This document shows positions 5,311 through 24,800 of a stretch of 64,000 bases of DNA, one piece after another. Source of the stretch: Alphaproteobacteria bacterium (GTDB lineage: Bacteria; Pseudomonadota; Alphaproteobacteria; Bin95); NCBI GenBank assembly GCA_963665325.3, contig OZ224045.1, positions 1,312,001 to 1,376,000 on the forward strand, read 5' to 3'. A program made the position numbers and the translations under genes. Under the pieces are notes generated by a model. That model saw nothing but the letters and a program-made list of their open reading frames with translations. It ran no database searches and was not told the DNA's origin. The number at the start of each line of letters is the position of its first letter. Position 1 is the first letter of the stretch.

Positions 5311-7212
5311 ATGGCTATGACGCCCCGCACGCTCCGGGTCCCCGAGACCGCCAATGCCCGGATTCTCGGCGATATGTTCCCGATACAGACCAATCACTGC
5401 CGCACGCCGGGCTGCGCCAATTTCGGCGTGCCGGCCCGCACCAGGCCCGGCAAGAGGGGTCCGAGCAGGGATCGCGATCCCCATTACGCGCTGATCTCGA
5501 CCTCGAAGGGCCAGGAGCCGGCTCTCAGGTGCAAGGCGTGCAACGGCAAGGGCGCCATCCGCTCGAACGCCGCCATCGCCGAGGAGGTCGAGCGCATCGC
5601 CGATTATGCCCGGCCGCTGGAATACCGCTTCGCCTGCAAGACCCCGGGTTGTCCCAATGAGGGGCGCTCCGTCGGCGAGCATCGCCAGCTCTATACGAAG
5701 TACGGCTACTACAAGACACCCGAGAACCCGATCTACCGGTGCAAGAGCTGCCTGCGCAACGTGCTCGTCTCGCACAAGGCTCCCAGGATCCACGCCAGGA
5801 ACCAGTCGCTCGCCGCCGACGTGTTCTCGCGCATTGCCAACAAGTCGCCCATGCGCCGCACGGTGGAAGGCGCCGGGCTCAGGAGCCATGCCGACTACTA
5901 CACCATCCTCGATTTCATTCATCGCCGCTGCTGCGATCTGAACAGCGCTGTCACGCGCTCCTTCCTGACCGGCGCGCGCCGCCTGCCGGCCGGGATGAAC
6001 ATCGCCATCGACTCGCAGTCGCTCATGGTCAACTGGCCGAGCAGGGCCCAGCGCCGCACGGTCGAGATGACCTCCTGCTGCAGCGTCGATGCCGCTTCGC
6101 GCTTCATCCTTGAGCTGGACGTCAATCACGATCCGCGGTTCGACCCGTTCGACGTCAACTACGAGTCCGCCGAGTTGGGCGACATGACCCGCAAGGAGGC
6201 GTTCCGCAAATATGCCCGCTTCTGGCTCGCCGGCGACGAGATGCGCAGCAGGAGGACCGGCCAGAGGCGGATGGGCCGCGAGGCCGCCGAGCAGGCCGTC
6301 GGAGACATCCAGGACGCCTTCCGGGCCGCCAATGCCTATGAGGACGTGGCGGAGATGGAGATCGTGCCGGGGCAGGGGCCCCTGCGCGACCACATGCTGC
6401 GCTCCGGCATGCTGGTGAAGACCGGCTACCGGACGCTCGGCCACATGTTCGTGCTGCGGGAGATCCTGAAGGGCGCCGGCGTGGAGCGGCTCCAGCTCTG
6501 CATGGACCAGCATCTCTCGACGATCTCGTCCTTCATGTGCGCCTTCCAGGAGCAGATCGCAGAAGGCGCCGCGCACGGCTTCCTGGTGCGCTTTGACAAG
6601 AACTGCGCGGTCGACGAGCGCGACCGGCTCTACGACGAGGCCATGCGGCAGCTGCGGGCCTTCGCCCGGGCGCGGGCCCTGGAGGGCATGGACAGGGAGG
6701 AACTCGGCCTCGAGATGATCCGGACCGCCTTGCGGGCCGGCGGCCTGCCCGAGCATGGCTGGCTGCGCCATCCGGTGCCGACGAAACAGGAGCCCGGCAA
6801 GCAAGTCCGCTGGATCACCGAGAATGCGGACACGGAACTGGACCCCCGCCTTCGCGAGGGCAGGCTGGCCCGGCTCTATCTCGGCGCCTCGCTCGGCCGG
6901 GTCGACAATGTCTTCGAACTGACCCGGCGGTTCCTCTCACCCCTGGAGCGGCCCTTCTACACGCCGAGCGGCGGCTGGAACCAGGTCTGGTACGGCTATG
7001 CGCCCTACAACCCTGACATGGTGCGGAAATATCTCGACATCTTCCGGGTGGTGAACAACTTCATCCACACCGGCAAGACGGACAGGGCCACGCCCGCCAT
7101 GCGGCTCGGCTTCGCCGACCGTCCGCTCACCTATGCCGACGTGCTGTGGCCGGGCGAGAAGATCCCCAGGCCGAAACGCACGCGTCGCAAGGGGCGCGGG
7201 TTGAAGGCCTGA
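5311..7212 (+). CDS. Large zinc-finger IS1-like DDE transposase-related protein (copy A)
   Basis: RBS GAGGAGGAAG; CRTPGCANFG, CKAC, CKTPGCPN and CKSC zinc motifs; acidic motifs IAIDSQ, LCMDQH, RVDNVF; C-terminal NFIH...TPAMRLG tail typical of IS1-type InsB. Confidence 0.7.
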   Translation: MAMTPRTLRVPETANARILGDMFPIQTNHCRTPGCANFGVPARTRPGKRGPSRDRDPHYALISTSKGQEPALRCKACNGKGAIRSNAAIAEEVERIADYARPLEYRFACKTPGCPNEGRSVGEHRQLYTKYGYYKTPENPIYRCKSCLRNVLVSHKAPRIHARNQSLAADVFSRIANKSPMRRTVEGAGLRSHADYYTILDFIHRRCCDLNSAVTRSFLTGARRLPAGMNIAIDSQSLMVNWPSRAQRRTVEMTSCCSVDAASRFILELDVNHDPRFDPFDVNYESAELGDMTRKEAFRKYARFWLAGDEMRSRRTGQRRMGREAAEQAVGDIQDAFRAANAYEDVAEMEIVPGQGPLRDHMLRSGMLVKTGYRTLGHMFVLREILKGAGVERLQLCMDQHLSTISSFMCAFQEQIAEGAAHGFLVRFDKNCAVDERDRLYDEAMRQLRAFARARALEGMDREELGLEMIRTALRAGGLPEHGWLRHPVPTKQEPGKQVRWITENADTELDPRLREGRLARLYLGASLGRVDNVFELTRRFLSPLERPFYTPSGGWNQVWYGYAPYNPDMVRKYLDIFRVVNNFIHTGKTDRATPAMRLGFADRPLTYADVLWPGEKIPRPKRTRRKGRGLKA

Positions 7213-7307
7213 GCGCAATCGGGCGCGCCGTTCCGCGGCCAGCGCCAAGCGCTGGTTGCACACCTAGAACAGAGCACGGCCACGCCCGGAAGCACTACCC
7301 TTTTGTG

Positions 7308-9809
7308 TCATACTCGTGGTGCCACACGGGCCGCAACTCGTATGTCTTCCATTTGCACACCGAGGCCTATAAGCGTTTGTCTCAACTCATCAAAAACCGG
7401 CTGTTCGCCCCTCGGATCAGATATGGTCAAAATCGCCGTAAACGGAATCCCGTGCTCCGGCACCTGTTCGTTCGAACGAGTCAAATAGTCCACAAACAAT
7501 CGCCAATTCGATGATCTTCCCACTCCGACAGGCATACTACGTTCATACACCTTTACGGGACTCCACTTCAATCCATGTTGAATTCGTTCCGCCTCAATAA
7601 TTCTCTGATCTCCTCCCTCCGGAAGATATACAGGCCGCAATTGCCTTTCCCATCCCCCCATTAGATTTTGTTGCTGTAACGCCGCATCTACATTTACGCG
7701 CACAAATTCCGACCCGAAATTGCCATCCAGGGGAGGACTGGCAACCAAGGTGAGGCGAGAGCGTCCCCTGCAATTTCCCTTTTCTCCTACTAGCGAGGGT
7801 GGCCAGGAAAACTGAAACGATATCTGCTGATCCCTCCTTATGCGCGATGCAAATACCAAGGTGATTGAATGGTCATCCGTTTCCAGTATCCGCTCAGCGG
7901 ACTCGGGTACTCCAAACCCTACCAACTGTCGAGCCACCTGCATGAGTGATTTCGATTGTAGCGGTTTAGGCACTTGTGCGTGGTGCAATAGCAATGCAAT
8001 GAGCGTTTCCCGAGAAACATCACCCTCAATTGCGTGCTCCAACGAAGCGGCAATCTTGGCTATCACCGGGGTTGCGTAGCTCGTTCCGCATCCGCTAACG
8101 ACTACTCCATCCGGCCTGACCGAAAACAGGCCATGCTCTGTTGGGTTGCCCTCTGGCGAACCCGACCCACCAACATGTGCCAAATCCGGTTTCACGCCAG
8201 TGCGCAAACCCGGTCCCCGCCGGCTGAACCGCGCCGGCGCGAATGGCACAGACGTACCGACCCCAGGCGGATTGACGGCCGCTACCGCTACGTTTCGAAC
8301 ACTCTCTGCCGGCGTCAGCAACCGATCCTCCGTTGCCGCCGCAAGTTGTGCCAGCGCTCGTGCGTCATCGCTCGGCCACTCGGGCCTCTGATCCCTCGGC
8401 TCCACATTGCCGACTGATACCAGGACAATGGCGTCCTGATCCTCAACAATTCTATCCAACCGCAGCGCATGGGGGTCATATCGGTCGAGTGAAGCCGGTC
8501 TCTTGATATTCAAGCTCATATTGTAGACACGCACACCGTGTCTCGACCGCGCCTCACCAATGGCTGTTTCCACCTCGTCGAAAAACTGCAAGACACCGTG
8601 CGGATAGTATGACGAAAACGCCTCCGTATCGTCCTCTCGCGGAAATACGGCTATATCCACAAGCTCGGCACCGTCCTCTTCCGGACAGCATTCCTCCCCG
8701 TTCAACGCCCTTCCCATCACCGCCAACCCGCCTATGAACGTGCCATGGTCATGGCTCGCATGTTCGCTCGCCAGGATATTCCATCGATCGATTACCCAAT
8801 CAGACAGAACCTCCCCCAAGCCTCCATCAATAATCCCTATCTTGGGGTAAGAGCGGCTTGTTTGTCTGTGTGGCACTGGAGCCACCGACCCGACGTCTTC
8901 CGTAATGCCGATACTCGGGCGCACCACTATGGCCGGTAACGATATTCGCCTTACAAGCGGATGCGCTTCCAGAAAGGTCAAGAGCCGAAGATGTTTTTCT
9001 TCGGAGGAATCAAACGGGACAACACTTCCCGTCCGCTCAGAGACGGTCGGCGAACCAAGCAGCATGGCCGTACTGTCGCTGGAACGAGAAATGTGCATTG
9101 CTACTGCTGCACGGTCCATATTTCGGGTCCCCAGGCGCCTGACCGACAATCCTCCCGCAATACCCTCGAGACCTGCAATAAACGACTCAAAAAGCCGGGT
9201 GTGGCTTCCGTCTAGCCCATTGACCACTCCCTTCGTTGGCGGCATCTCAAATAACTCGACTTCATAGCTGCTGCCGGTGATAGGGTTCGAGAGCCAAGCG
9301 ATGGCGCTCTCCAAAGAAAATTCCCGTCGATCATCTCTACCAAACAGCTCGATGCGTTCTATCGCACCGGCTTCGCTTCTCCGCGCCGAAGGGTACGGAA
9401 CATCTTTTTGTTTATTCGGATCGAAGCGCCACGCCAATATATCTTCCGCCTTAGTAATTTCATTCACAACCTCATGAATCGCTTCCGGCTTCACCTTGAA
9501 AATCATTACGCCGAGATCTTCACCCCCCACCAGCGCGGCGCGGTTGGAACGGAACAATGCACTCACTGGCCGATGGCTTTTGGCCCAGGCTGAGCGACGC
9601 AAAGTGACCTTTATGTATCCGATGTCACTGTAAGGAGATTTGGCGAGAGCATCAGCTATTGAACCAAGCTCAGCAATAAGTTTCGCCTTGTGCCGACTAA
9701 ACTCGTCATTTGCTCCTACGAAAAATTCCTTCTTCGGTCCTCCACCGGATTTTTCCCGGTTTTGTTCGAAGTTTTCGGGATTAAGAATTACTTGTATCGG
9801 ACCAGCCAT
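7308..9809 (-). CDS. ietS: S8 subtilisin-like serine protease, IetS-like
   Basis: Catalytic triad IGIIDGG / HGTFIGG / GTSYATP, LLTPAES, VKPDL; directly downstream of an AAA ATPase; lower GC. Confidence 0.85.
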   Translation of the reverse strand: MAGPIQVILNPENFEQNREKSGGGPKKEFFVGANDEFSRHKAKLIAELGSIADALAKSPYSDIGYIKVTLRRSAWAKSHRPVSALFRSNRAALVGGEDLGVMIFKVKPEAIHEVVNEITKAEDILAWRFDPNKQKDVPYPSARRSEAGAIERIELFGRDDRREFSLESAIAWLSNPITGSSYEVELFEMPPTKGVVNGLDGSHTRLFESFIAGLEGIAGGLSVRRLGTRNMDRAAVAMHISRSSDSTAMLLGSPTVSERTGSVVPFDSSEEKHLRLLTFLEAHPLVRRISLPAIVVRPSIGITEDVGSVAPVPHRQTSRSYPKIGIIDGGLGEVLSDWVIDRWNILASEHASHDHGTFIGGLAVMGRALNGEECCPEEDGAELVDIAVFPREDDTEAFSSYYPHGVLQFFDEVETAIGEARSRHGVRVYNMSLNIKRPASLDRYDPHALRLDRIVEDQDAIVLVSVGNVEPRDQRPEWPSDDARALAQLAAATEDRLLTPAESVRNVAVAAVNPPGVGTSVPFAPARFSRRGPGLRTGVKPDLAHVGGSGSPEGNPTEHGLFSVRPDGVVVSGCGTSYATPVIAKIAASLEHAIEGDVSRETLIALLLHHAQVPKPLQSKSLMQVARQLVGFGVPESAERILETDDHSITLVFASRIRRDQQISFQFSWPPSLVGEKGNCRGRSRLTLVASPPLDGNFGSEFVRVNVDAALQQQNLMGGWERQLRPVYLPEGGDQRIIEAERIQHGLKWSPVKVYERSMPVGVGRSSNWRLFVDYLTRSNEQVPEHGIPFTAILTISDPRGEQPVFDELRQTLIGLGVQMEDIRVAARVAPRV

Positions 9810-9816
9810 GGCTTAG

Positions 9817-11001
9817 TTACCCTTGGTCTGTGTTCTTGCTGAGTTGACGACTGATTGTCGATGGCGAGCGGCAAGATACTTCAGCTATGTCGTTTGCAGA
9901 AAAGTTAAGTTCGGGATCACTTTTCATTCCACGGAACAAATCGATAGGACGCCCAAATAGCAGAGCGCGGCGGGCATTGTGTACGCGGGCACTGTTCAGG
10001 GTAGAAAATTGTCTCATCGTCTCTATGAGATTAAGAGGAGCATCCTTGGATAGGGCGACGGCTTTCTTGTATGCTCGGATGATGAGTTCGATTTCGGCGC
10101 CTGTGCACCCTTTCGTGATCCAAGCCATCAGTCGCACATGGTTGTCGGGGGCAGCAACGGGAAAGAGAAAATGGTGCGCAATACCCACACGCATTGAGAA
10201 GTCGGGCTTGGGTATTTCGAGCTGAACTTCGAAGCGACGCCAGACAGCGCGGTCGAGCAAAAGCTCGTGATTTGTAATAGCAATGGTTAAACCAAAGGAC
10301 TGCCGGCCGTCTAGATTTTGAAGAAGAGCGTTCACCACGCGCTTTATCTCGCCAACTTCCTGGGGATCGTCGCGGATCTTGGCAATAGCGTCGAATTCAT
10401 CGAGGAGGAGAACGCATTGGTTGCGATTAGCGAAAGTAAATAGGCTTCTGATATTTCTTGCAGTTGTTCCCAAAAAGGAAGAGACAAGACCATCTAATCG
10501 TACCAAGACGACCGGGAGGGACAGCTTGAAGGCGATCCAAAGTGCAAGCCGGGTTTTCCCGGTCCCCGGGGGGCCGTGAATGAGGCAGGTTCTCGGGGGG
10601 TGGAGGCCGACTTCGGATAGTTGGTCGAAATTGGCCCATTCTTCGATGATAGTGGTGATTGCTGTAGTTACCGCCGGGTTGAACAGAGGGGCATGGGGTT
10701 GGATGTCTTTCGGGAAAACGAGTTCTGCCAGGGGAGCAGAGGTTTCGCGATCAACAGGAACGGGGGTGGTAGGGGTGAGAATCCCATCGGGGGATTGCAG
10801 GCGGGAGCGTGCAAGCTGGCTCGGGGCTACCTCTCGTGTTCGCGCGGCCTCGGTAAGCAGCCTCGTTAGAGTCGCGGCTTGGGTGCTGTTTCCATTTCCC
10901 GCCAAGGCATCGCGCAACCGCTCAATCTGCTTTCTGACCGCAGGAGAGGGGTCTGCCATAGCCGATCGGCAGAGTGCCTGAATGATTGCAAAGTGCTCCA
11001 A
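9817..11001 (-). CDS. ietA: AAA+ ATPase, IetA-like, with C-terminal HTH
   Basis: GPPGTGKT, SSFLGTTARNI, LLLDEFDAIAKIRDDPQEVGEIKRVVNALLQ, LDRAVWRRF; likely TTG start at 11001. Confidence 0.85.
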   Translation of the reverse strand: MEHFAIIQALCRSAMADPSPAVRKQIERLRDALAGNGNSTQAATLTRLLTEAARTREVAPSQLARSRLQSPDGILTPTTPVPVDRETSAPLAELVFPKDIQPHAPLFNPAVTTAITTIIEEWANFDQLSEVGLHPPRTCLIHGPPGTGKTRLALWIAFKLSLPVVLVRLDGLVSSFLGTTARNIRSLFTFANRNQCVLLLDEFDAIAKIRDDPQEVGEIKRVVNALLQNLDGRQSFGLTIAITNHELLLDRAVWRRFEVQLEIPKPDFSMRVGIAHHFLFPVAAPDNHVRLMAWITKGCTGAEIELIIRAYKKAVALSKDAPLNLIETMRQFSTLNSARVHNARRALLFGRPIDLFRGMKSDPELNFSANDIAEVSCRSPSTISRQLSKNTDQG

Positions 11002-11080
11002 ACCTGTCTCCCCCACACTGCAAGACTGGGCGTCTCTCGAAGGGTCGATACTCCAATGTGACCTTCGAAGCAAGGGAAAA

Positions 11081-11120
11081 TTGCATGAAATGCAGAAAAC
11101 TTGCATGAAGTGGAGAATTT
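11081..11120. promoter_or_regulatory. Two imperfect 20-bp direct repeats upstream of ietA
   Basis: TTGCATGAAATGCAGAAAAC followed by TTGCATGAAGTGGAGAATTT. Confidence 0.45.
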
Positions 11121-11216: not shown

Positions 11217-11687
11217 TCAGTTGTATTTCGCCTGATATTTGCGGGTGCGGCTCCAGGCGGCCAGCATCAGGCGCCTGTAGGCGCAGGTTTTCCCGAACGC
11301 GGGACAGGCGTAGCGGGCCATGTCCCGGGCTTCGTCTATGGCATCGCCGCTGCCGGCCGGATCGGCGCCAGCGTCCAGCGCCGCCTCGATGAACGCCGCA
11401 TTGGCGGAGCTGATGGCGTAGTCGAGCGGCTTCCGCCCGTATCCCTCGCAGATTTCGGGATCGGCTCCGGCCTCGAACAGCGCTCGGGCCACCTCCCCGA
11501 CGGCGTTGTCGGCGGCGGCGTAGTGCAACGGCGTGCAACCGCCGGCGTCCCTGGCATCGGGATCCGCGCCAGAGGCTACCAGATCGTCGATTTCGGCGCG
11601 GTCCTCGGCCATGGCGGCAGCGACATGGATGAATTGCGCCCCGTAGCCCAGCCGGAACCGCCCATGCATGCCGTGGGCATAGATCAT
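11217..11687 (-). CDS. Ankyrin repeat protein
   Basis: GADPDARDAGGCTPLHYAA...LFEAGADP...GRKPLDYA...LDAGADP. Confidence 0.85.
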   Translation of the reverse strand: MIYAHGMHGRFRLGYGAQFIHVAAAMAEDRAEIDDLVASGADPDARDAGGCTPLHYAAADNAVGEVARALFEAGADPEICEGYGRKPLDYAISSANAAFIEAALDAGADPAGSGDAIDEARDMARYACPAFGKTCAYRRLMLAAWSRTRKYQAKYN

Positions 11688-11834: not shown

Positions 11835-12896
11835 TCACGCGGCGTCCTGCGGTTCTTCCGGCTCGCGCTCCAGCAAATCGTCGATCTGGCCGCCGCCGGC
11901 ATGCTGTTCGAGCAGTTTCGCGAATTTCAGCCCGGCCCAGCCTCTCGTGAACGGCCTGCTTTCATTGAACATCGCCATGGTCTGGGCATGGAGCCTGTCC
12001 AGGATCGCGGCCAGGTCCGCTCCGGTCAGCGGGTGGACATCGGTGCGGCCCCGGCAATAGAGCTTGTGCAGCCTGTAGCCGATATGACTCAGTTCGCGGA
12101 TGCCGAAGACGAGGAACTTCGCCCGGTCGCGGTGCCTTTCGTCCAGTCTTCCCGGCGCGTCCTGGAGCCGGAGCCGCACCCGGCCGTCGGTCAGGTCGGC
12201 CTTGCTGACCATGAGGCAATAGACGCGCTTGCGTCCTTTTTCCTTGAGCGCCTTGTCCACATGGCGGACGGCGCTGTCCCATTGTTCCTTGACGGTCTTG
12301 TTGCGCAGTCTTTGCCCCTGGCCTTCCTGCATGGTGACTTCGCCGATCACGGTGAAGCCTTCGTAGTCAGCGCGGACATCGGGCTTGCCCTGCGGCGTGT
12401 GGCCGTAGGGGATGCCGCGCAGCCGGCCTGTCCTGTGCACGCGGCAGGGACACAGCGCGGTCTTCGGATCGCCCAGGCAACTGAGCAGCAGGGCGACGAT
12501 CAGCTCCAGGCCGACCCCCTTGGGATAGAAGCGCTGCTGTTTCTTCAGCAATCCGGTCGCGGGGGCATCCTCGCCGCCGCCCCGGTCGCCTTCACCCTCA
12601 CCCCGGTCGTCCCGGCTGTCTTCGCCATCCTCCGCGAGGGCGGCGTCGCGCGCTGCCGCCTCAAGGGCGGCCTTTTGCTGCTCCTCCTCGTCGAAGGCGG
12701 CCCAGTATTTCTGCGCGGTCTCGTGGTCGAAGCCGATGGCCGGATAGACATAAGCCGCGCTCACGCTGTCGTGGTTGTTGCAGAGCTGGGTCGCCGCGAG
12801 GTCCAGTATGCGGGGATCGACGTCGATCCCGGGATCGGGAAAGCGGATCCGGCCCCTGGACCCGGGGCCGACCAGGACGCGCGCCGTCAGCGTCAT
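11835..12896 (-). CDS. AlwI/Nt.BstNBI-like PD-(D/E)xK nuclease domain protein
   Basis: HTPQGKPDVRADYEGFTVIGEVTMQEGQGQ...QWDSAVRH matches the AlwI-family PD..EVT..Q..RH pattern; ATG at 12896 overlaps the upstream stop (ATGA). Confidence 0.65.
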   Translation of the reverse strand: MTLTARVLVGPGSRGRIRFPDPGIDVDPRILDLAATQLCNNHDSVSAAYVYPAIGFDHETAQKYWAAFDEEEQQKAALEAAARDAALAEDGEDSRDDRGEGEGDRGGGEDAPATGLLKKQQRFYPKGVGLELIVALLLSCLGDPKTALCPCRVHRTGRLRGIPYGHTPQGKPDVRADYEGFTVIGEVTMQEGQGQRLRNKTVKEQWDSAVRHVDKALKEKGRKRVYCLMVSKADLTDGRVRLRLQDAPGRLDERHRDRAKFLVFGIRELSHIGYRLHKLYCRGRTDVHPLTGADLAAILDRLHAQTMAMFNESRPFTRGWAGLKFAKLLEQHAGGGQIDDLLEREPEEPQDAA

Positions 12897-13777
12897 CGCC
12901 CACCCTCCGGCTTCGTCTTCCGCTTCCCGCTCTTGCGGGTTTCGAGCGGGAACAGCCACTGCACACCGCCGGGAAAGCCTTCCGGGACCAGCACGCCGGC
13001 ATCGCAGAGCATGAGCGCGCTCGATTTGGCCGCGGCGATCTGCTCGCCGTTCGGGGAATAGTCCTTCTCCACCCGGTCGGCGGCACCGTCGGCCATGACG
13101 AGGGCGGCATATTCGAGGCCGCCCCCACCGACATCGAGCCCGGCCAGGTCTTCCTCCCGGTCGCCCACGATCGTCCCGGCGAAATCCACGGGCCGGGGGG
13201 CTGCCGGCCACCCGTCCTCGTCCTTCTTCGTCGCGTCCGCCTCCGACAGCCAGAAATGGAAGCGCATGAACTCGGCGAGGCAGAGCGCCGGACGGTAACA
13301 GGCCGACTTCGGGACATCGTCCTGCTCCTTGCCGAGCTTTTCGATCGCCCGGCGCACCTTGCGCAGCCGCCCGGCCACCGCGCGCGCCACGTAATCCCGC
13401 CCGGTGACGCTGTAGCGGCTGCGAACGGCCCGGCGCAACGCCCGCTTGCGCTTCATGCAGCGATAGCCCTCGGGCGTCACCCGGTCCTCACCGTCCACGA
13501 GTTCGAGTTGCCGCAGCTGGACGAGGCAGTCCTCCGCCATCCGGGGCAGGATCTTCGACCAGTCCGGGATCGCCGGATAGCCGTCCTCCTCTGCCGGCGT
13601 CCCGAACAGCCCGAGCCCCTCGAGATGCTCGTCGCTCAGGCCCTCTTCCTCGATCCGGGCCTCCAGCACTTCCAGGGACGTGCGGCCGCGCGGGCGCTCC
13701 GCCGCCAGCGCGTCCAGAGCCGAGGGCAGGAAATACAACTCCTGCTGAAGGCCGGCCAGGAAGAGCAGTTCAGCCAT
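12893..13777 (-). CDS. Hypothetical protein, possible winged-helix DNA-recognition module
   Basis: LVQLRQLELVDGEDRVTPEG is wHTH-like; overlaps both neighbouring genes. Confidence 0.55.
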   Translation of the reverse strand: MAELLFLAGLQQELYFLPSALDALAAERPRGRTSLEVLEARIEEEGLSDEHLEGLGLFGTPAEEDGYPAIPDWSKILPRMAEDCLVQLRQLELVDGEDRVTPEGYRCMKRKRALRRAVRSRYSVTGRDYVARAVAGRLRKVRRAIEKLGKEQDDVPKSACYRPALCLAEFMRFHFWLSEADATKKDEDGWPAAPRPVDFAGTIVGDREEDLAGLDVGGGGLEYAALVMADGAADRVEKDYSPNGEQIAAAKSSALMLCDAGVLVPEGFPGGVQWLFPLETRKSGKRKTKPEGGR

Positions 13778-15722
13778 TGCCGAGCCTCCGGGTCATCTCC
13801 CTTGCCTCCCGCCAGCCCAGGCGGAAGTCGGGCTTGCGCGCGATCGGCCGACCGCTCCGTTCCTCCCAGGGCAGCAGGCCGAGCCAGTGCGCCGGGTGTT
13901 TGCCCCGCGCCAGCGAACGCTTCGGGCGCGTGAAGTTCATGGCGAACCAGGCGGCCCAGAGCTTGAAGCACGCATATTCGGCGTTCACCATCGACTTCGC
14001 GAAGCTGGAACCGGATTCGGCGCGCATGCCCGGCCGGGCGACGGCCTGGGACCGCCGGCGCAGGGCGCCGATCGCGGAGTCCACCGATTGCGGGCTGGCA
14101 TCCTCCAGGAACGCGTCGATCTGCTCGCAGGGCGGCCAGTCCCGGTCCGGTCCCTGCGACAGCCACAGCACGGCAAGGCGCGTATTCTCCCAGCCTGCCC
14201 GCTCGCGCCACCCCCAGCCGCCCCGTTCCGACCAGGCGCCGTGCATGACCTTCCTGAAGAGCTCCGCCTTCGCCCGGGTGAGCCGCCGCGGGTCCCCGCC
14301 TCCCAGGAGGTCGGGGCCGTCCTGCGCGAGTTCCTCCCCGATCCTGTCGCGCCAGGCCTCGCCGAGCCGTTTCGTCTCGGACGTCCAGGTCGGCGCGGAG
14401 GTTTCGGAGAACCTCGCGCGACCCTCGGAGCCTGCGATCTGCACCACCGCGATCTCGGCGCGGCGGATATCGTCGTGCCCGTCCCCGTCACCCCCTTTCG
14501 TGGCGGCGGGGGTCCGCATGTCCCCGGCGAAGACGGCGGCCGCGCTCCGGTATGCCGTGTATTTCCCGTCCAGCGACAGGGTGACCCGGTCGAACCGGGC
14601 GGTCTGCTCCTTCAACACCATGAAATGCGCCAGTTCGGCATATTCCTCGCGCATGAACAGCGCCCCGGCGCCCAGATAGGAGTATTTGTTGCCGCGAAGT
14701 GCGGCGTCCCCGTGGTCGGTGCCGAAGTGGAACAGGTGGTCGAACCGCCGCTCGGCGACGGGAAGACCGCCGTCGGCCATGGCTGCGGCCGGATCCTCCG
14801 GCGGCAGGTTCTCCTTCCCGAAAACCGCGCAGGGATGGGCGCCGAGCACGAAATAGGTGGCGGGCTCGTGGAAGCGAAGCGCCGTCACCAGCACCGGGAG
14901 CCAATGGAAGCGGGGCCGGTAGGCCTTCCTCGGCCTGCGCAGCGAGCCGTACAGCGTGTCGGTGCGCAGCGTGGCGACGCCGTTGAACGGGCTGTCGTCG
15001 GGACCGGGGTCCCTGCCGCCGTTCTCCCGGACGAACAGCCGGCGAAGCTGTTCCGTGCAGTCCCGCGCCATGAGGGCGGCGGCGTTGTAGCTCTGGTAGT
15101 CGCGGACCCGCTGTCCGACATTCCTGACCGCCGCCTCGTAGTGGCTTGCATTGCCGCGCGGATCTTCCTCTTCTTCCAGCTCCTCCAGCGTCTCGCGTAT
15201 CCCCCGGCCCTTGCGCACGTTCCAGAAGATCGTCGCCAGGCGCGCTTCCAGTTCGCCCGGCTCGTCGCGGCCCAGATGCAGGCGCGTGGGGCCGCCCAGG
15301 CTGAAGGTCGTCGTGCATTCCCGGCACCTCGCGCGATCGCGCGCATGCGCCTCGTAGCGGTCGCTGTGCTCGAAGACATTGATGCCTTCGTTTGCGCAGC
15401 CCGGCTTGCCGCACGCGGCGAACGGGATGCTCTGGCGCTTGAACCACACATAGGCCGCCCGCAGCGAGCGGTTCGACAGCAGCCGCGATATCATCCCGCA
15501 GGCCCCGCACCGGTAGCGCCGGTCGGCCAGGAAGCCGCGTGCCGGTTCGACCGTGTAGCGCCCGGCATAGCTCCCGCGGTCGGGCGCCGGCCCGAAATTC
15601 GGGCACATCGGGTTGCGGCAGAAATTGGCGTTAAAGGTGAACCCCGGCCCGATCTCCGGGAACGGGATCGGGTCAAAGGCGCAAAGGTCGGCCTCTGCCA
15701 TGCGCCCGGTTGTTCCCGCCAT
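13770..15722 (-). CDS. Large zinc-finger IS1-like DDE transposase-related protein (copy B, divergent paralogue of 5311-7212)
   Basis: CRNPMCPNFG, CGAC, CGKPGCANEG, CREC; LRTDTL, LSLDGK, SVDSAI; MNFTRP...HPAHWLG tail; G-rich RBS before ATG 15722. Confidence 0.65.
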   Translation of the reverse strand: MAGTTGRMAEADLCAFDPIPFPEIGPGFTFNANFCRNPMCPNFGPAPDRGSYAGRYTVEPARGFLADRRYRCGACGMISRLLSNRSLRAAYVWFKRQSIPFAACGKPGCANEGINVFEHSDRYEAHARDRARCRECTTTFSLGGPTRLHLGRDEPGELEARLATIFWNVRKGRGIRETLEELEEEEDPRGNASHYEAAVRNVGQRVRDYQSYNAAALMARDCTEQLRRLFVRENGGRDPGPDDSPFNGVATLRTDTLYGSLRRPRKAYRPRFHWLPVLVTALRFHEPATYFVLGAHPCAVFGKENLPPEDPAAAMADGGLPVAERRFDHLFHFGTDHGDAALRGNKYSYLGAGALFMREEYAELAHFMVLKEQTARFDRVTLSLDGKYTAYRSAAAVFAGDMRTPAATKGGDGDGHDDIRRAEIAVVQIAGSEGRARFSETSAPTWTSETKRLGEAWRDRIGEELAQDGPDLLGGGDPRRLTRAKAELFRKVMHGAWSERGGWGWRERAGWENTRLAVLWLSQGPDRDWPPCEQIDAFLEDASPQSVDSAIGALRRRSQAVARPGMRAESGSSFAKSMVNAEYACFKLWAAWFAMNFTRPKRSLARGKHPAHWLGLLPWEERSGRPIARKPDFRLGWREAREMTRRLGNG

Positions 15723-15834
15723 CGCTACTCCCCCCTGCGGTTCGCGACCCCGGATCGGAGTCCGGGGTTGGCCGCGAGCCACTCCAGGGTCCGCTCATCG
15801 GCCTTTTCGTCTTTGCATCCGGCACGCCCGCCGT

Positions 15835-18800
15835 TCAGAACCGCGCCGTCAGCCGGATACCGAGACTGTGCTCGGGCTCTGCATTGTCGTTGGCGCTCTC
15901 CTGCCGCCTGGCCTCGAAGGAGAGCTCCAGCGAGCCGATGCCGCCGGGCCGCGGGTCGCGGGCGAACCGCCAGCCCAGGCTGTAGTCCCGCCGGCCTTCG
16001 GACATCCCGAAGCCCAGCTCCGGCGTCGAGGTGAACCGGTCGCCGAACGCCCCGAAGCCGTAGCCGAGCCGCAACTCCAGGCGCCGGCGGTCGAGCTCGT
16101 TGCCCTCGTCGTTGGCCGCGAGGCCCTCCAGCGTGGTGCGGCCGAGCAGCGCGTCCGCGCCGCCCCTCGCCGACAGGCCCATGGTCTGGGTGAGGCTCAG
16201 GCTCGGGCCCCGGTCCGTGCCCGGCGCCGGGTCCCAGCCGAACGACCCCGCGATGCCGCGCTGGCTGAACCCGGCGCTCTCGTGGGTCAGCAGGCCGCGC
16301 CCGCTCACCTCCGCCCGGATCCCGGTCCCCGGGTCCGACCAGGCGAGACCGCCGCCGAGGTCGAGCCCGAACCCGGTCTCCGCGTCGCCGCCGTCATGGC
16401 GCACGCCGGCCTCGAGACGGGGCTCAAGCGTGCCCGTGCCGATGGCGAGGCCCCGCCACGTCCCCTCGAGGCCGAGCCGCAGGCGCGTCACGTCGCCTTG
16501 CGCCGCCGCCAGGTTGCGCGCATCGTCCTTGCTGCCCCGGACCGCCTCCGAGGAGGTCCGCACGGCAAGCGCGTCGGTCTTCACCGCAAGCTCCGGGCCG
16601 CCGCCCGCCGGCGCTTGCACCACCGTCCCGCGCAGGCCCGCCGCCCCCATCATCAGGTCCATGTCGGTCCGGATCGCCGCCCGGGGCGCGCCGTCGTCAT
16701 CCTCCGGCGTCAGCGTCAGCGTGCCCGCGCCGTAGCCCGCCACGCCCCACACCGTCACCCGCTCGCTCAGCGCGTGCCGGCCCCAGGGATAGAGGCCGGT
16801 CAGCGTCGAGGACACCGTCCCCGCGCCCGCCTCGCCGCGGTAGCCGCCTTCGCCGCGGCTGTGCGACAGGATCAGGCCCAGCGTGCTCCGCTCGCGCGCC
16901 CAGTCCGCGCCCAGCAGTCCGCTCGCCACCTCGCCGTCCAGCGTGAGCCCGTCCTCGCGGCCGTCGAAACGCGACACCGCCGCCCGGCCCCACAGCGACA
17001 CCGCGCCGGGCGCGCCGTCCCCGGGCGCCGCGGTCAGCGAGAACGAGCTCCCCAGCAGCAGCGCGCGCTGCGTCACCGTGCGCGTCTCCAGGCCCGGCCG
17101 CTCCTCTTCCTCCGCCGCGCCCCGCAGCCACGCCGCCAGCCGGCGCTGCCCTTCCTCGGCCTCCGCCCCGGTCTCCCGCGCGCGCTTCGCCAGCGCCGCA
17201 TCCGCCCCGAACAGCGGGCCGAGCCCGATCCGCCGGCCCGCAAGGCTCACCTCCGCGCCCGGGGTCCGCGGCGCCCGCATCCGCGACTCCACCGCATCGA
17301 TCACCTGCTCGGCCACCGTGCGCCCGAACCGCGCGAGCCACGCCTGCGGCATCAGGTCGGTGTTCTCGATCGTCCCCGTCGCCTCGCCGTCCGCAATCCG
17401 CGCCCCCGACGGGTTCGAGAGGCGCAGCACCAGCGTCTCGTTGCCCTCGTCGTGCAGGTCGTCGAGCACGGCGACCTCGACGGTCTTCGCCGTCTCGCCC
17501 GCGGCGAAGGTGAGCGTCCCCGACGCGGCCGTGTAGTCCTCGCCCGCCGTCGCGGTCCCGTTCTCGGTCGCGTAGTCGACCGTCACCGTGTCGTGCCGCG
17601 TCCGGTCGAGCGTGACCGCGAACGCGAGCACCGCTCCGGCCGCCTCCTCGACCGTGGCGTCGGCGACGCTGATCGCCACCGGTCCGGGGATCGTCACGCT
17701 GATCCCCGTCTCGAGCTTCCCGCCCGCGGCGGTGCAAAGAGCCCCGGCGGCGGCGCAGTCGGCGGTCGGGTTGAGCGTGACGGCGATCGGCCGGAAGTCA
17801 TGGGGCCGAAGCGCCGAGCGGTAGAGCTTGTTCGTGTCGTCGAGCGGCTTCACGCCCCACTTTGCGGCTCGCGTCATCGTGAGCGACGCCGCCACCGCGT
17901 TTCTGCCTCCGGTGGGCGGCTCGCTGAAGCGTACGTGCAGGTCGAGGCGCGTCTTGCCCTGGTGCTCCTTGGGCACGTTCTCGAATGTGGCGGTGATGGG
18001 AGCCGGCGGCGGCGGCGCCGAGGCCGGTCCCGGGACGGAGAAGCCGATCAGGCTCTCCAGCTTCCGCCCGTCGCTTGTGCAAAGGGCGTTCTCCGCCGTG
18101 CAGTCGGTCGTCGGGAAAAGCGACAGCCGCACGTCGGCGTCTCCGCTTGGTTCGATCTCGACCCGCCGGTGCGCTTCGTCGCCGTTGGCGGCGCCGCCGA
18201 CCACGCGCACGCGCAGGATGGTGCCCCCGCTGATCTGCAGCGCTGCCTTGATGTTGAAGTTCTTCACGTTGGCGGGCGCTTCGCTGAAGCGCAGGAACAC
18301 GTTGAACGCGCTCGCCCCGTCGTGGGTGCCGGGGCCGTCCTCGAACGCTGCGGTGAACGGCCCGGCGTCCTCGCCCTCGACCGTCGCGGTCACCGTCGCA
18401 GAGAGGCCTTCGCCCCCGGCGGTGCAGAGCACGCCCGGGTCGCCGCACGCGCCGCCCGCCTCGACCGTGAGGGTGATGTCGCCGGCGCCGTCCGGGTCGA
18501 CGGTGATCCGCCACTCGTCGGTCTGTCCGTTGACGGAGGTGGCGCTGCCGACCGACCCGCCCGTGACCTTGACGACGTTGTCGCGCACGTCATCCGCGTC
18601 ATTCGCGATGGCCTCGCTCAGCACGATGCGGAAGGTGAACGGCGTCGCGCCGTCATGGCTCCCCGGGACGTCCTCGAAGGCCGCGGTCAGCGCCGCCGCC
18701 TCTTCCTCCTGCGTCGCGCTCTGGAGCGTGCCGGTGCACGCCAGCCACACGTCCTCCTCGGGCTTGCAATTGTGGAGCCCGACGCCCGCGTTGTAGCAGT

Positions 18801-21800
18801 GGTGCAGCCCGGTCGGACCCGGAGACCCCGCCGGCCTCCAGTGCTTGTCGGTCTCCGAGACGCAGCGCACGTCGTCGAGCCAGATCTTCAGCGTTTGCGC
18901 GGCCTTGCCGGCGTTGGAGACCATCGCGCCGGTCTCGAATCCCGCCCACCGGCAGGCCAGATGCGCCGCCTGGTTGGGCACCTTCGTGCTTTCGGGGGTG
19001 CCGGGGTCGTCGAAGTCGCGGTCGAAGCGGTCGTCGCACACCGAGCCCCATCTGCCTCTGAAGAACACCTCCAGCCGGCCCTCGGCGTCGCCGTCCGCGG
19101 GGTCGTAGGCGTTGCCATTCCCGTCGGTCAGCTGGGTGTCGCCCTTGTCCGCCTCCGTGGTCCGGTTGGTCACGGGCCAGTTCGCAAACGTCGCCACCTC
19201 CTTGCCGGACCCGTCCTCGAGCCGGTTGTCGTCGTCCGTCCCGGGCACCGTGTAGCCCACTGTCACCGTGTCGCCGGGCGCCACCGCCGAGGCCAGCGTC
19301 AGCGTCACCCTGGCGCCGTCGATCGACGGGGCGCCGCTCAGCGTCACCGTCGCCTCCGTGCCGCTGCCGGACGGCGTCACCTTCACCGTGAAGGCGCCGC
19401 TGGCGAGTTTGGACGCCGCCGCCAGCGGCTCGTCGAAGGTGATCACAAGCTCGTCGCCGTCGACCTTGGCGGAACTCACCGCCGGGGCGGTGGTGTCGGA
19501 CCGGGTCACCGTCACCGTGTAGGTCTTCATCGTCGTGCCGTCCTCGGCCGTCACCTTCACCTTGATGGTGTTCTCGCCCACCTCGAGCGCCACCTGCTGG
19601 CCCGTGGCCACGGTGTCGTCGTCGGGGATGTCCACGTCACCGGCGTCGAGGTAGTCCGCGCTCGCGCCGCTGTCGGAGAAGGTCGGCGCCACGGTGATCT
19701 GCGAGACTCCGTTCGCCACCGTCGCGGTGTAATTCTCGGTATTCGACGCGAACGCCGGCGTGAGGTCGACCGAGGCGGTGCCCGCGGTCAGGACGAGGGC
19801 GCTCAGGGTGGCGTCGTCGGACACGCCGGTGTTGTTGGTCACCGGATAGTCGGTCTCCGCAGACGCGTCGAGGCCCGATAGGTCCTGCAGCGGGCTGGAC
19901 GTCGGCACCGCGTAGCTCACCTTCACCGTGTCCGAGGCGACCACCGCCGCCGTCAGCGTCAGCGTCACCTTCGCGCCGCTGATCGTCGGCGAGCCGCTCA
20001 GCGACACCGTAGCCTCGGTGCCGCCGGACGGGGTCTTCTTCACCGTGAACTGGGCCAACGCCGGGACCGAGCCCGTGTCCAGGTTCTCGTGGTAGGTCAG
20101 CACCAGCGAGGTGGCGTCCACCGTCGCCCCGGTCAGGACCGGCGGCAGGTTCGCGCTCACCGTCACCTTCTGGCCGTCAAACCAGGCCAGGTCCGCGGGA
20201 CGGGACCATTGGTACGTATCGTCGTTGGTGGACTCGGAATCCGCATCAGCCGCGAACGTCGTCCCGCCGAAGTTGAACGTCGTGCCGCGCGGCACGCGGC
20301 CGGTCTCGAAGCTGATCACCACAAGTTCGGCCTGCAAGACCGACGTCGACTCGTTCAGCCGAAGCCGATCGACGACATAGGTCGTCCCCCCATGTGGAAG
20401 GGTCTTGTTGGCAAGCGTTCCTTTGTCCCCCTCCTCGAATCCGTAATAGACCGCAACTCCCTGATTATCCGCCTCCACCGTCATCGTGGTGCACCAGTTG
20501 GCGCCGGCGGCCTCGCGGACGGAGCAGGCCTCCGGCGCGGCGATCACCTCAATGTCGAAGGTGTCGCTCACCGTGGCGTTCGTCGCGCCCGAACCGTCGT
20601 CCGCCGTCACCTTCACCGAGACCGTCCCGACGTCCGTGTCCGCAGGCGTGCCCGAGAAAGTCCGCGTCCCGGCGTCGAAGGAGAGCCAGGTCGGCAGCGT
20701 CGTGTCGTCGTCCTGCGCCGCCGTGTAGGTCAGCGCGTCGCCAGTGTCCGTGTCGTCGAAGGTGTCATCATCAAACGTGAAGCTGAACGCCGTTCCCGCC
20801 TGGGCCGACTGGTCCGGGATCGCATTCGCGACCGTCGGGGCGGTGTTGGTCGCGCCGGTGTTGTTGGTCACCGGATAGTCGGTCTCCGCAGACGCGTCGA
20901 GGCCCGATAGGTCCTGCAGCGGGCTGGACGCCGGCACCGCGTAGCTCACCTTCACCGCGTCATCGGTGGCGACCACCGCCTCGTCCAGCGTCAGCGTCAC
21001 CTTGGTGCCGCTGATCGTCGGCGAGCCGCTCAGATCCACGTCCTCCTCGCTGCCGCCCGACGGGGTCTTCTTCACCGTGAACTGGGCCAACGCCGGCACC
21101 GAGTTCGTGTCCAGGTTCTCCGCATAGGTCAGGACCAGGGAGGCGCCGTCCACCGTCGCGGAGACCAGCGTCGGCGGCAGGTTCGCGCTCGCCGTCACCT
21201 TCTGGCCGACGAACCAGGCGAAGCCCGATGGCAGGTTCCAGGCGTACGTACCGTTCGTCCCATCCGCGGTGAACAGGCTTCCGCCGAGATTGAACACGGT
21301 GCCCGGGTGGATGAAGGCGTTCAGCTTCACCGACATCACAGTATCGGTATGTTGGATGTGCGTGATGGACCAAGTCCTACCGCCGTATTCGATATCCCGG
21401 TCGTCCGCGTCCATCGATCCGTAGGCATTGGGCCCTTTCCACCCGTAGAGGGCGGAATTGGCGTCCGTCCCCACCGTCAGCGTCGTGCACCAGTTGGCGC
21501 CGGCGGCCTCGCGGACGGAACACGCCTCCGGCCCGGCGATCACCACGATGTCGAAGGTGTCGCTCACCGAGTCGGTGCCGTCGCTGGCCGTCACCTTCAC
21601 CGAGACCGTCCCGACGTCCGTGGCCGCGGGCGTGCCCGTGAAGGTCCGCGTCGTGGCATTGAAGGAAAGCCAGGTCGGCAGATTACTGTCGTCGTCCTGC
21701 GCCGCCGTGTATTCCAGCGTGTCGCCGGCGTCGGCGTCGTCGAAGGTGTCCGCCGGGAACTGGTAGCTGAACGCCGTCCCCGCCTGAGCCGCCTGGTCGG

Positions 21801-24800
21801 GGATCTCATTCTCGACCGTCGGGGCGTTGTTGGTCGCGCCGGTGTTGTTGGTCACCGTATGGTCGGTCGAGCCGAAGCCGGCTGCGGCGATCCCGGACAC
21901 GTCCTGCACCGGGTTCGTCGCGGGCACCGTGTAGCTCACCGTCACCGCCTGGCCGCTGCTCACCGCCGACGCCAGCGTCAGCGTCACCTTGTCGGCGGCG
22001 ATGCCCACGTTCGACGGATTCGCCGCCGCGCCGCTGTCCACCGATACCGAATACGCGCCCACCCCCGGGACCGAGCTCGTGTCCAGGTTCTCCACATAGG
22101 TCAGCACCAGCGAGGCGCCGTCCACCGTCGCCCCGGTCACCTCGGGCGGCAGGTTCGCGCTCACCGTCACCTTCTGGCCGACAATCCAGGCAAGGCCCGC
22201 GGGAAGGTCCCACCGGTACCTGGTGTTGTCGCTGTGTTCGGACGCCGCGTTCGCCGTGAACGACTCCCCGCCGAAGTCGAACGCCGTGTCGTGCGGCACC
22301 CGCCCGGTCTGGAAATCGACGATCACTCCATCGGTGCCGCTGTTGGCGTCCCAGATCCAGACACCGCGCACCTCCCACGTTCGGCCATGGTCGATGGTGC
22401 CTTCGACGAGCCCGCCGTAGTCGTTGTGCGCGAAACCGTAGGCCGTGCCGGAGCCCCCGGCGCTCTCCCCCACCGTCATCGTCGTGCACCAGTTGGCGCC
22501 GGCGGCCTCGCGGACGGAACACGCCTCCGGCGCGGCGATCACCTCGATGTCGAAGGTATCGCTCACCGTGGCGTTCGTCACGCCCGAACCGTCGTCCGCC
22601 GTCACCTTGACGGAAATCGTCCCCACGTGCGTGTCCGCAGGCGTGCCCGAGAAGGTCCGGGTCCCGGGGGTGAACGTCAGCCAGGTCGGCAGCGTCGAGT
22701 CGCCGTCCTCCACCGCCGTGTAGGTCAGCGTGTCGCCGGCGTCGGCGTCGTCGAAGGTGTCATCATCAAACGTGAAGCTGAACGCCGTTCCCGCCTGGGC
22801 CGTTTGGTCCGGGATCTCATTCTCGACCGTCGGGGCGGTGTTGGTGACGGGCCTCGACAGCGCCAACCCCACGGAGCCCGCCGTGGCCCAGTCGAGAGTG
22901 GTGTTGGACCAAGTGTAGCTGTTGATGTGGCCGAGAGACACGGAATGAGACGCAGCGCTCGCGTCGAAGGTGGTATTGCAGACATGCAATCTCAGAGCCG
23001 CCCGGTCGCCTGCGGGCAACTCGCTCTCCAGAACAAAGGCGAGGTTCGTGGGCGTTGAGTAGATTAAATTGTCACCTCCAAGGGTGATGCCAATGATTGT
23101 GTGATCGTCTCCTCCCAAATTGACTGTATTGTCGGAAAGATCGCCAAGATTTTCATTGAATCCGAAAAAACCAACAGTTGAACCAAACAAGAAAGACGTT
23201 CCCACCGTCAGGGTGCCCGACCAGACCTCGACGCGGTCGTCGCCCAGGCTGTCGATAGTGCACACCGACTTCACCGCGATGTCGAAGGTGTCGCTCACCG
23301 TGGCGTTCGTCTCGCCCGAGCCGTCGTTCGCCGTCACCTTCACCGAGACCGTCCCCACGTCCGTATCCGCGGGCGTGCCCGAGAAAGTCCGGGTCGAGGC
23401 ATTGAAGGAAAGCCAGGTCGGCAGCGTCGTGTCGTCGTCCTGCGCCGCCGTGTAGGTCAGCGTGTCGGCGGTGTCGGCGTCGTCGAAGGTGTCCGCCGGG
23501 AACTGGTAGCTGAACGCCGTCCCCGCCTGGACCGCCTGGTCGGGGATCTCGTTCTCGACCGTCGGGGCGTTGTTGGTGGGCGTGGGCGTGATGGTGGTGC
23601 CGACCGGACAGATCTGCGTCGCGGTGCGCAGGCACACGGGCACCATTGCGCCGATCGCGAGCGTGGTCGCGAACTGGCTGCTGCTGAGCGACGGCGCGTT
23701 GGCGAGCAGCCACGTGTCGGTCCAGGCAACGTCCGTATTGCCGCGACCGCTGGAACCGCTGAAGGGCAGCCTCTCGCCCGCCACCTCCAGAACGAGGCCG
23801 TCCGCGTGCGACCCATCGAAGTCCAAGCCGTTGTGGAGTGCTGCAAAATAGAACGTCCCAGTCCCCACAGCCTTGGATAGCGAGCTCACGGCCGCGTGCA
23901 CGCTGTTATAGGTAAGCGCGCTGTCGGCGAGGGCTCCTTTTGTGCCACCGGAGTTATAGCCCCGCCCCCCATCGGTGATCTCCCCCACCGTCATGGTCGT
24001 GGACCAGAGGGGAGTGGTGTCGGCGCTCACCACGATGTCGAAGGTGTCGCTCGCCGTCAGGCCGCCCGGATCGGTGGCCGTCACCTTCACCGAGATCCGC
24101 CCGACGTCCGTGTCCGCAGGCGTGCCCGAGAAGGTCCGCGTCGTGCCGTCGAGGGAAAGCCATGCCGGCAACGCCGTGATGCCGTCGGCCAGCGTCGCCG
24201 TGTAGGTCAGCGTGTCGCTGTTGGCGTCGCTGAAGGTGTCCGCCGGGAACGTGTAGCTGAATGCGGTGCTCGGCGTCGCCGTCTGGTCGGGGATCGGATT
24301 GTCGAGCGTCGGGGCGGAAAGATCCGGACAGGTCTGCGCCGCGGTGCGCAGGCAGACGGCCATCTTGTTGCCGACCGCGAGCGTGGTCTGGTACTGGCTG
24401 CTGCTGAGCGACGGCGCGTTGGCGAGCAGCCACGTGTCGGTCCATCGAACGGTAGTAGATGTGCGATTGTCGGCACCGCTGAAGAGCAGCTCCTCGCCCG
24501 CCACCTCCAGAACGAGGCCGTCCGCATGCGACTGACCGAAGTTCGCTTCGCCGTGGATAACACCAAATTCGAAGGGATCAGCCCCCGACTCTTTGACCAA
24601 GACGCCCACTCTCGTGTCAGTGCTGTTATAGGTTAACTCTGCGTCGCCCATAGTTCCATTTGACCAAGAGGCGTTGAACCCTCGGGCCGCATTGCTGGTT
24701 TCCCCCACCGTCATGGTCGTGGACCAGATGGGGTCGGTGCCCTGCGCCTGGGCCGGCGAGGCGAACGTGCCCGCGAGCGCCAGGGCGAGGCAGGCCCACA

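Follow-up and report, generated by a model that had tools for sequence, protein, structure and literature searches.

The 64,000-nucleotide (nt) stretch of an Alphaproteobacteria bacterium genome analyzed here (contig OZ224045.1, positions 1,312,001–1,376,000, or C1:1312001-1376000 of genome G000; hereafter the window) carries, on the minus strand at window positions 11835–15722, a cassette of three genes that encode a transposase-like zinc-ribbon protein and, as judged by structure prediction and profile matching, the two halves of a split restriction-type nuclease. Cassettes of this kind lie at one end of units that are bounded by terminal inverted repeats, target tRNA-Ser genes and hold no other recombinase, which favors a role in transposition. 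We tentatively propose that the cassette is a module of a new family of tRNA-Ser-specific DDE transposons in which labor is divided as between TnsA and TnsB of Tn7; this function is assigned by analogy, and we rate it as possible, somewhat short of probable.

Gene 1 (P0001, 650 amino acids (aa); 13770–15722) comprises two double-Cys zinc ribbons, a helical region and an RNase H-like core. Gene 2 (P0002, 294 aa; 12893–13777) would provide the DNA-recognition half of an enzyme of the AlwI/N.BspD6I type, and gene 3 (P0003, 353 aa; 11835–12896) has an N-terminal segment of about 125 aa with no assigned role, followed by an AlwI-type PD..EVT catalytic domain. These lengths are counted from the starts chosen in an initial annotation, within program-made open reading frames (ORFs) at 13770–15782, 12893–13777 and 11835–13211, all on the minus strand. 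The gene overlaps are those given in that annotation: 8 bases at 13770–13777, where the gene 2 ATG (13777–13775) and the gene 1 TGA (13772–13770) together read ATGGCTGA on the minus strand, and 4 bases between genes 2 and 3, ATGA at 12896–12893 on the same strand (its 12893–12896). Both internal starts, of genes 2 and 3, are preceded by GGAGG-like motifs, and genes 1–3 are translationally coupled.

First, we analyzed gene 1. The Cys pairs C35/C40, C72/C75, C104/C109 and C133/C136 do not vary across the 39 homologues aligned, which bears out the four Cys-pair motifs of the initial annotation. The AlphaFold2 model (predicted local distance difference test score, pLDDT, 83.9; predicted template-modeling score, pTM, 0.90) has its best Foldseek match in the ISCth4 transposase of the IS256 family (E 1.6e-2, probability 1.00), and further matches are the P element, Tn5 and RAG1 transposases, Argonaute PIWI domains and RNase T, all of which are RNase H-like folds. 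The RNase H fold, which the initial annotation had set as a check on its claim, is thus found, albeit at weak E-values. A candidate triad, D255/D385/D548, with R555 seven residues on, is conserved across gene 1, its paralog par633 (see below) and plasmid homologues; among the gene 1 homologues, D548 is replaced by N in 3 of 39 and D385 by H in one (P0055). H366 and N596 are also conserved throughout the alignment of these three groups, as are the Cys pairs, some of which are missing from the plasmid homologue pl_Saur. At the level of sequence, the D-D-D(+R) pattern is that of a DDE-type triad. Gene 1 thereby combines the RNase H-like fold, at weak E-values, with the three conserved acidic residues of DDE transposases, and model and alignment support its description as a zinc-ribbon, RNase H-fold, transposase-like protein whose nearest folds are DDE transposases. 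It matches no Pfam and no NCBIfam model, and the IS1 model NF033558 is silent at E ≤ 1. Profiles of genes 1 and 2 gave nothing useful against PDB sequences, where gene 2 has no sequence match. The database relatives of gene 1 (52), gene 2 (63) and gene 3 (14, at the sensitivity of that search) are all without names.

Second, the evidence on genes 2 and 3 supports a split AlwI-family enzyme, predicted to consist of the recognition half and the catalytic half of a type IIS/nicking endonuclease, in agreement with the initial annotation. The AlwI/Nt.BstNBI-type motif that it had read in gene 3 is upheld by residues D173, E186, T188, Q205 and H212, invariant in 17 sequences, and by the gene 3 profile, which aligns with residues 445–512 of the N.BspD6I large subunit (E 2.2e-5) with PD..EVT in common. 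The Pfam family RE_AlwI (PF09491) scores 22.3 bits against gene 3 (E 7.7e-5), narrowly missing the cut-off of 23.1 bits, and matches 6 of the 17 gene 3 homologues at E ≤ 0.01; in contrast to the AlwI family proper, the score falls just below the cut-off and the N-terminal 125 aa have no assignment. For the gene 2 model (pLDDT 81, pTM 0.82), the six top Foldseek matches in the PDB are all N.BspD6I chains (probability 0.93–0.99, TMq 0.46–0.49, about 300 columns), with FokI and PaqCI lower in the list. Gene 2 has no Pfam and no NCBIfam match, and its likeness to the DNA-recognition domains of N.BspD6I is at the fold level only, with the matched target residues unspecified; we infer that it is the recognition half because gene 3 already accounts for the catalytic domain. 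A complex prediction for genes 1 and 2 scored 0.00, which gives no verdict and counts neither way.

BspD6I itself has a separate, catalytic-only small subunit (PDB 2p14), a precedent for a multi-chain form. Unlike BspD6I and AlwI, the cassette has recognition and catalysis in two genes rather than in one polypeptide (the same split is found in 13 of 13 loci), is accompanied by no conserved methyltransferase and is coupled to a transposase-like gene. The absence of a methyltransferase, noted in the initial annotation, holds for the window, where the families PF01555, PF02384, PF07669, PF00145 and PF02086 have no match (all five match elsewhere in the genome), and fails at two other loci, L001 and a second cassette locus of the same genome (site B), the only places at which large Eco57I/N6 methylases adjoin the cassette. 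Those methylases have their own partners, and no methyltransferase is found among the cargo of L004 or L005. The cassette as such lacks the cognate methyltransferase of type IIS restriction-modification systems.

Third, we evaluated whether the three genes belong together. The order gene 1–gene 2–gene 3 is kept in 13 of 13 loci with full gene 1, down to 44%/40%/34% identity, so the co-occurrence and gene order that the initial annotation had put forward as a check are found elsewhere. These loci are the window, site B (C1:181070-184854), seven genome-contig loci and four more; the genome-contig search returned 13 loci, six of which hold only gene 1 fragments, and in all seven with full gene 1 genes 2 and 3 follow directly downstream. 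The gene 1 profile matches 11 of 37 genomes of the host order, including 10 of the 16 other genomes of the window's genus and none of the 20 in two sister genera. A fourth gene, par633 (P0132, 633 aa; plus strand, coding sequence at window 5311–7212, or 5231–7256 with its conserved promoter region; identified by BLASTP, DNA identity and the triad), is present in 9 of the 17 genomes of the genus, and this set coincides with the nine in which gene 1 is full-length. Together with an ankyrin-repeat gene (P0133, 156 aa; 11217–11687, minus strand; Pfam Ank families), par633 lies convergently on the far side of variable cargo in 10 of the 13 cassette loci; it is absent from two, and one is cut by a contig break. 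The ankyrin gene is 70–90% identical in other loci and always adjoins par633.

By BLASTP, par633 matches gene 1 over the zinc-finger region (E 5e-9), with weak colinear matches beyond, and we regard it as a distant paralog of gene 1 and as a candidate for the core transposase of the unit. The par633 stretch is 83% identical in DNA to the site B copy. A simple insertion sequence with its own ends was considered for par633 and rejected, as conservation between the genome's two copies begins at a promoter-like stretch and not at a repeat. A joint profile of gene 1 and par633 matches 1153 cluster representatives at E ≤ 0.001, and 242 at E ≤ 1e-30, among 1.84 billion proteins; none of 60 representatives scanned has a Pfam transposase domain. 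The IS1 model NF033558 matches 28 of the 60, over model positions 8–81 of 199 and at 29.8–33.5 bits (about 30–34), which falls short of the cut-off of 100 and of the whole-model match that define the IS1 family, and 25 of the 60 match the IS1/IS1595 zinc domain. The 'IS1-like acidic core and tail' that had been ascribed to gene 1 is therefore not borne out: no IS1-type DDE core is detected in gene 1, and the only IS1 likeness detected is in the DNA-binding head, the N-terminal zinc and helix-turn-helix part, of other superfamily members, with gene 1 and par633 giving no match. Three of the 60 representatives (P0207 and two more) have a C-terminal DEDD (RNase T/DnaQ-like) exonuclease domain.

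Elsewhere, the superfamily reads as acting like a transposase, as judged by names and repeats. The nearest Atlas clusters carry the name 'putative transposase', and a 3.3-kb unit on a Staphylococcus aureus plasmid (L032, 5321-8648) has 75-nt imperfect inverted repeats (80% complementary) at its ends and holds a 98-aa ORF, dfrG and a par633 homologue of 650 aa. Plasmid par633 homologues stand alone in varied settings. Those on Enterococcus plasmids are annotated 'insertion element protein'; on a Trichlorobacter plasmid (L033, 7944-13216) the homologue lies directly before a 1165-aa N6 DNA methylase, and on a Polaromonas plasmid (L035, 5010-11773) it precedes genes for an AAA protein of 1414 aa and for an HNH nuclease. 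Members of this superfamily may have paired more than once with large DNA-acting partners.

Fourth, we analyzed the ends of the units, which are 15–19 kb long and have the cassette at one end, par633 and the ankyrin gene at the other, and variable defense-type cargo in between. Three are complete (site B, L001 in G013, and G011), with terminal inverted repeats of 23–32 nt and a direct repeat of 9–10 nt that equals the 3' end of tRNA-Ser. At site B, the inverted repeat is a perfect 24-mer found nowhere else in the genome, and TGGCGGATGG on both outer sides is the 3' end of the neighboring tRNA-Ser(TGA). The G013 unit (L001) has a perfect 32-nt inverted repeat and TGGCGGTGGG at tRNA-Ser(CGA), and in G011, where two units stand in tandem with their ends abutting, the repeat is 23 nt long and has a single mismatch. 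A mini unit of 4.6 kb (L038, G000 C1:185104-189728) adjoins tRNA-Ser(TGA) and has the same kind of ends around a single gene for a 1244-aa SIR2-domain protein. It looks like a non-autonomous, defense-carrying mini element, and that it carries the SIR2 gene only fits mobilization in trans. The 5' end of cassette gene 1 always faces the nearer unit end, which is 217–340 nt away in three loci and otherwise separated from it by one large gene. Cassettes of type I (the window, L001) are found in or near units whose ends begin with AGAGG, where the window's end is a candidate, and ATAGCCGAT-type ends accompany 4 of 7 type-II cassettes, numbers too small to count.

Empty sites, which the initial annotation had named as a check, were found for site B: its core flanks are 18, 8 and 35 nt apart in G001, G005 and G015, respectively. 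When the flanks are read, the tRNA is followed at these sites by unrelated native sequence, which assigns the terminal repeat to the insert. Nearest the tRNA is the cassette end at site B, G012, L006 and G011b, and the par633 end in L001, G005 and G009. A complete tRNA-Ser gene stands directly next to the gene 1 end in two cases (G012, L006) and next to the par633 end in two others (G009 and a par633-only unit of G011). The units therefore occur in both orientations. Tyrosine and serine recombinases (PF00589, PF00239) have no match inside the three complete units (stretches G000 C1:163008-189737, G013 C5:3405980-3421358 and G011 C3:1907792-1925027) or in the window, and ORF coverage of site B leaves no space for a further gene, so that the recombinase of an integrase-type island is missing from inside the units. 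The terminal inverted repeats and target-site duplication of a DDE element are present in the three complete units and one mini unit, and are not found at the window copy. We infer from these ends that the units are mobile, DDE-type transposons that would make a 9–10 bp target duplication at the tip of tRNA-Ser.

Far ends were not detected, at up to 5–6 mismatches, for the cassette-only units of G012 and L006 and the par633-only unit L048, nor were they detected for the par633-only units at G011 C3:342097 and G009 C1. Logan contigs from four runs cross both junctions of site B and none skips the unit, which provides no evidence on excision. In G016 (C1:3589000-3598500, L047), a decayed unit occupies the chromosomal site that corresponds to site B; in it, the first ~54 gene 1 codons lie directly beside an ankyrin gene fragment, and a fragment of par633 is also present; other N-terminal gene 1 stubs (L011–L013; G000 C1:1638654 and C4:546637) may be scars of the same sort. 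A 1.05-kb repeat at G000 C1:164750-165808 (L037 3750-4808), with at least five more genome copies at 98–100% identity, is presumably an active small insertion sequence.

We next turn to the window copy itself. No tRNA gene is found in the window and, counting from the window start, no tRNA-Ser gene lies in the 120 kb on the left or in the 184 kb on the right. A search for terminal repeats between window positions 4400 and 16400 found none; the 400-nt outer flanks of the copy show no inverted match (score 19; shuffle mean 18.8, maximum 24), and a comparison of 65 kb on its left with 68 kb on its right gave no terminal repeats, with three matches of 24–27 nt far outside that look unrelated. Two units meet 8.2 kb left of the window (G000 C1:~1303787-1303830), at a junction that reads as an end repeat, TGGCGGTGGG and an end repeat starting with AGAGGGGATCGG; there is no tRNA gene beside it, and the candidate left end that it provides has no partner within 98 kb at up to 6 mismatches. 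The window copy is probably immobilized, or fixed in place, with its genes intact.

Based on these observations, the proposed mechanism would run as follows. A DDE-type enzyme (par633 and/or gene 1) would cut and join the 3' ends of the unit, and the split nuclease, in which gene 2 would read a short site and gene 3 would cut at a fixed distance, would make either the second-strand cut at the ends or the cut in the target, as TnsA beside TnsB. A role in transposition is favored by the constant position and orientation of the cassette at one end, by the kinship of gene 1 with the enzyme at the other end and by their co-occurrence at the genome level. In Tn7, the heteromeric transposase combines TnsA, a restriction-enzyme-like nuclease, with the DDE enzyme TnsB, and the target is glmS. 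Like Tn7, the units have a restriction-type nuclease gene beside a DDE-type gene at one end of a large, cargo-carrying, site-specific transposon. No sequence relation to Tn7 was found: genes 1–3 have no Pfam match to the TnsA nuclease, rve-type TnsB or TnsC ATPase that define Tn7-like elements. The units further differ from Tn7 in that the cassette has no AAA+ regulator, the nuclease brings a DNA-reading subunit of its own, another DDE paralog sits at the opposite end, and the target is tRNA-Ser in place of glmS. The likeness is one of working principle only: the pairing of a nuclease with a DDE enzyme is known from Tn7, and these families, the split nuclease, the second paralog and the tRNA-Ser target are not.

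Other elements share single features with the units. ISCth4, the best fold match of gene 1, belongs to IS256, and IS1 makes a 9-bp target duplication that resembles the 9–10 nt flanking repeat. Unlike IS1, IS1595 and IS256, the units encode proteins of about 600–650 aa with two zinc ribbons, and are site-specific elements of 15–19 kb. The Dada DNA transposons of eukaryotes insert strictly into multicopy small RNA or tRNA genes (PMC3706591). Dada and the present units are alike in targeting small-RNA genes, here tRNA-Ser, and differ in that Dada is eukaryotic. To our knowledge, Dada has no nuclease partner. The titles and abstract openings returned by literature searches contain no description of such a cassette or element.

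Several observations weigh against the proposed role in transposition. The fold matches of gene 1 are weak (E 1.6e-2; TM 0.24/0.36–0.39), and thus show the fold and not the family. At site B, gene 1 is interrupted by one TAG and a frame change in a unit whose ends are perfect. Relative to the window copies, par633 and the ankyrin gene are 71–90% identical, and the cassette 67–84% (L004, L001) or 34–50% (six loci); in those six loci, the cassette has diverged much more than par633 and the ankyrin gene of the same unit pairs (34–50% vs 71–81%), and in this comparison looks less like a co-evolving core than like a module that evolves fast or can be exchanged. The par633 and ankyrin genes adjoin tRNA-Ser without a cassette at G011 C3:342097 and G009 C1, and the cassette may therefore be dispensable; among the complete units, none has a cassette without par633. 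In addition, the inverted repeats and direct repeat could also be read as the core sites of a site-specific recombinase acting in trans, and the window copy has no detectable terminal repeat or tRNA gene.

The divergence of the cassette and the par633-only copies, together with its defense-rich surroundings, favor an alternative that we hold to be a real, if lesser, possibility, in which the cassette is a defense system carried as cargo: a domesticated transposase paralog would sense or bind foreign DNA and direct a methylation-independent, split type IIS-like nuclease at phage or plasmid DNA. The cassette stands among defense-type genes, with AAA and S8 genes in the window; AAA_21 with RloB, DUF4238, DUF6197 and NYN, or NACHT, SNF2-PLD and an Eco57I-type methylase, beyond gene 3 elsewhere; and the SIR2 gene of the mini unit. 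Its distribution is patchy within one genus (10 of 16 other genomes), and units with par633 and no cassette exist. Cassette types at 67–78% or 44–50% identity to window gene 1, on a backbone at 77–84%, would be expected under diversifying selection, and the plasmid par633 homologues next to a large N6 methylase or an AAA and HNH pair point in the same direction. However, genes 1 and 2 match no model in PADLOC-DB 2.0, and gene 3 only weakly REase_II (E 0.007–0.05); the cassette holds a fixed place near the unit end (217–340 nt in three loci), where cargo would be expected at variable places; no self-protection gene, methylase or inhibitor, is conserved with it; and gene 1 retains its catalytic triad, for which a simple sensor would have no use.

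It is improbable that the units are common tRNA-linked islands whose mobility depends on a tyrosine or serine integrase gene at another location, with the repeats as att sites and the cassette and par633 as unrelated passengers, e.g., a stand-alone nuclease and decaying insertion sequences. The 3' ends of tRNA genes are a classic integrase target, units form tandem arrays at one tRNA, and 9-nt arms around a 9-nt center resemble recombinase core sites; G000 has 64 PF00589 matches elsewhere, and an integrase N-terminal fragment lies in the window at 1743–2540. Yet neither PF00589 nor PF00239 is present in any of the three complete units, and the repeats span 23–32 nt and are perfect or almost perfect. 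Units are found in both orientations with respect to the tRNA, which crossover at asymmetric att sites would not yield, and the catalytic residues are retained in par633 and gene 1, two genes found together in 9 of 9 genomes. Least of all do we expect the cassette to be what is left of a type IIS restriction-modification system, orphaned and placed next to an insertion sequence by chance. Its AlwI-family likeness and the methylase genes at site B and L001 could be cited for this reading; against it, 13 of 13 loci preserve order and coupling at identities as low as ~35–45%, the catalytic motifs are invariant, and the adjoining methylases are large Eco57I/N6 types with their own partners that are absent from the window, L004 and L005.

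If the cassette does act in transposition, as we propose, a more specific version can be formulated that is speculative and rather unlikely: a heteromeric machinery of a zinc-ribbon DDD enzyme and a split type IIS nickase whose recognition subunit would read a GRATC-like pentamer, so that the nuclease would measure both the ends and the insertion point, as a programmable 'ruler'. Read by eye, a GRATC-like pentamer lies 5–6 nt inside the terminal repeats, and GAATC lies 5 nt before the duplicated bases in the T-arm of tRNA-Ser. Enzymes of the AlwI family cut at a fixed distance from their site, with the geometry GGATC 4/5 for AlwI, and the pentamer spacing may fit such cutting.

The remaining genes of the neighborhood are as follows. 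Between par633 and the ankyrin gene of the window, a stretch at 7308–11106 on the minus strand encodes an AAA ATPase (429 aa, 9817–11106) and an S8 peptidase/subtilase (833 aa, 7308–9809), with a lower GC content of 52–58%; it is inserted there, and is missing at site B, where the two flanking genes abut. We take the two proteins to resemble ATPase-protease defense pairs. A second AAA ATPase (403 aa; 3549–4760, minus strand) has full-length homologues at 55–77% identity in the islands L005, L013, L041 and L048 and a short fragment in L002; as judged by these matches, it recurs as a passenger or component of the units. The ORF at 1743–2540 (plus strand) has an N-terminal SAM-like integrase domain only, in a window with no PF00589 match anywhere, and is probably a remnant. 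Directly upstream of gene 1, at a distance of 113 nt, lies a gene for a giant surface protein (3117 aa, repetitive, Calx-beta; 15835–25188, minus strand), whose last residues resemble by eye the C-terminus of an outer-membrane barrel, with no domain match. The C-terminus of a homologous giant gene was found by tblastn upstream of gene 1 in L004, L005, L007 and L009; composition correction was off in this search, many matches were spurious and the top matches alone were used. In G011, the giant surface gene lies between gene 1 and the terminal repeat, and such a gene is probably cargo inside the mobile unit.

Should the cassette work in transposition, the association of a restriction-type nuclease with a DDE enzyme, known from Tn7, would have a second and independent example that shows no sequence relation to Tn7, and one in which the nuclease keeps a separable DNA-reading subunit. 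The cassette would then allow the study of how target and end cleavage are set by a type IIS 'measure', and might supply compact components for inserting DNA site-specifically at the tip of a tRNA gene, a location that is conserved and safe. Should it serve in defense instead, a transposase paralog would have been recruited to direct a methylase-free restriction nuclease. Either way, the analysis defines an uncurated, transposase-like superfamily of 1153 cluster representatives with no Pfam family, tRNA-Ser-specific islands by which anti-phage genes spread within a single alphaproteobacterial genus, one known solely from metagenome-assembled genomes, and small non-autonomous units with the same ends.

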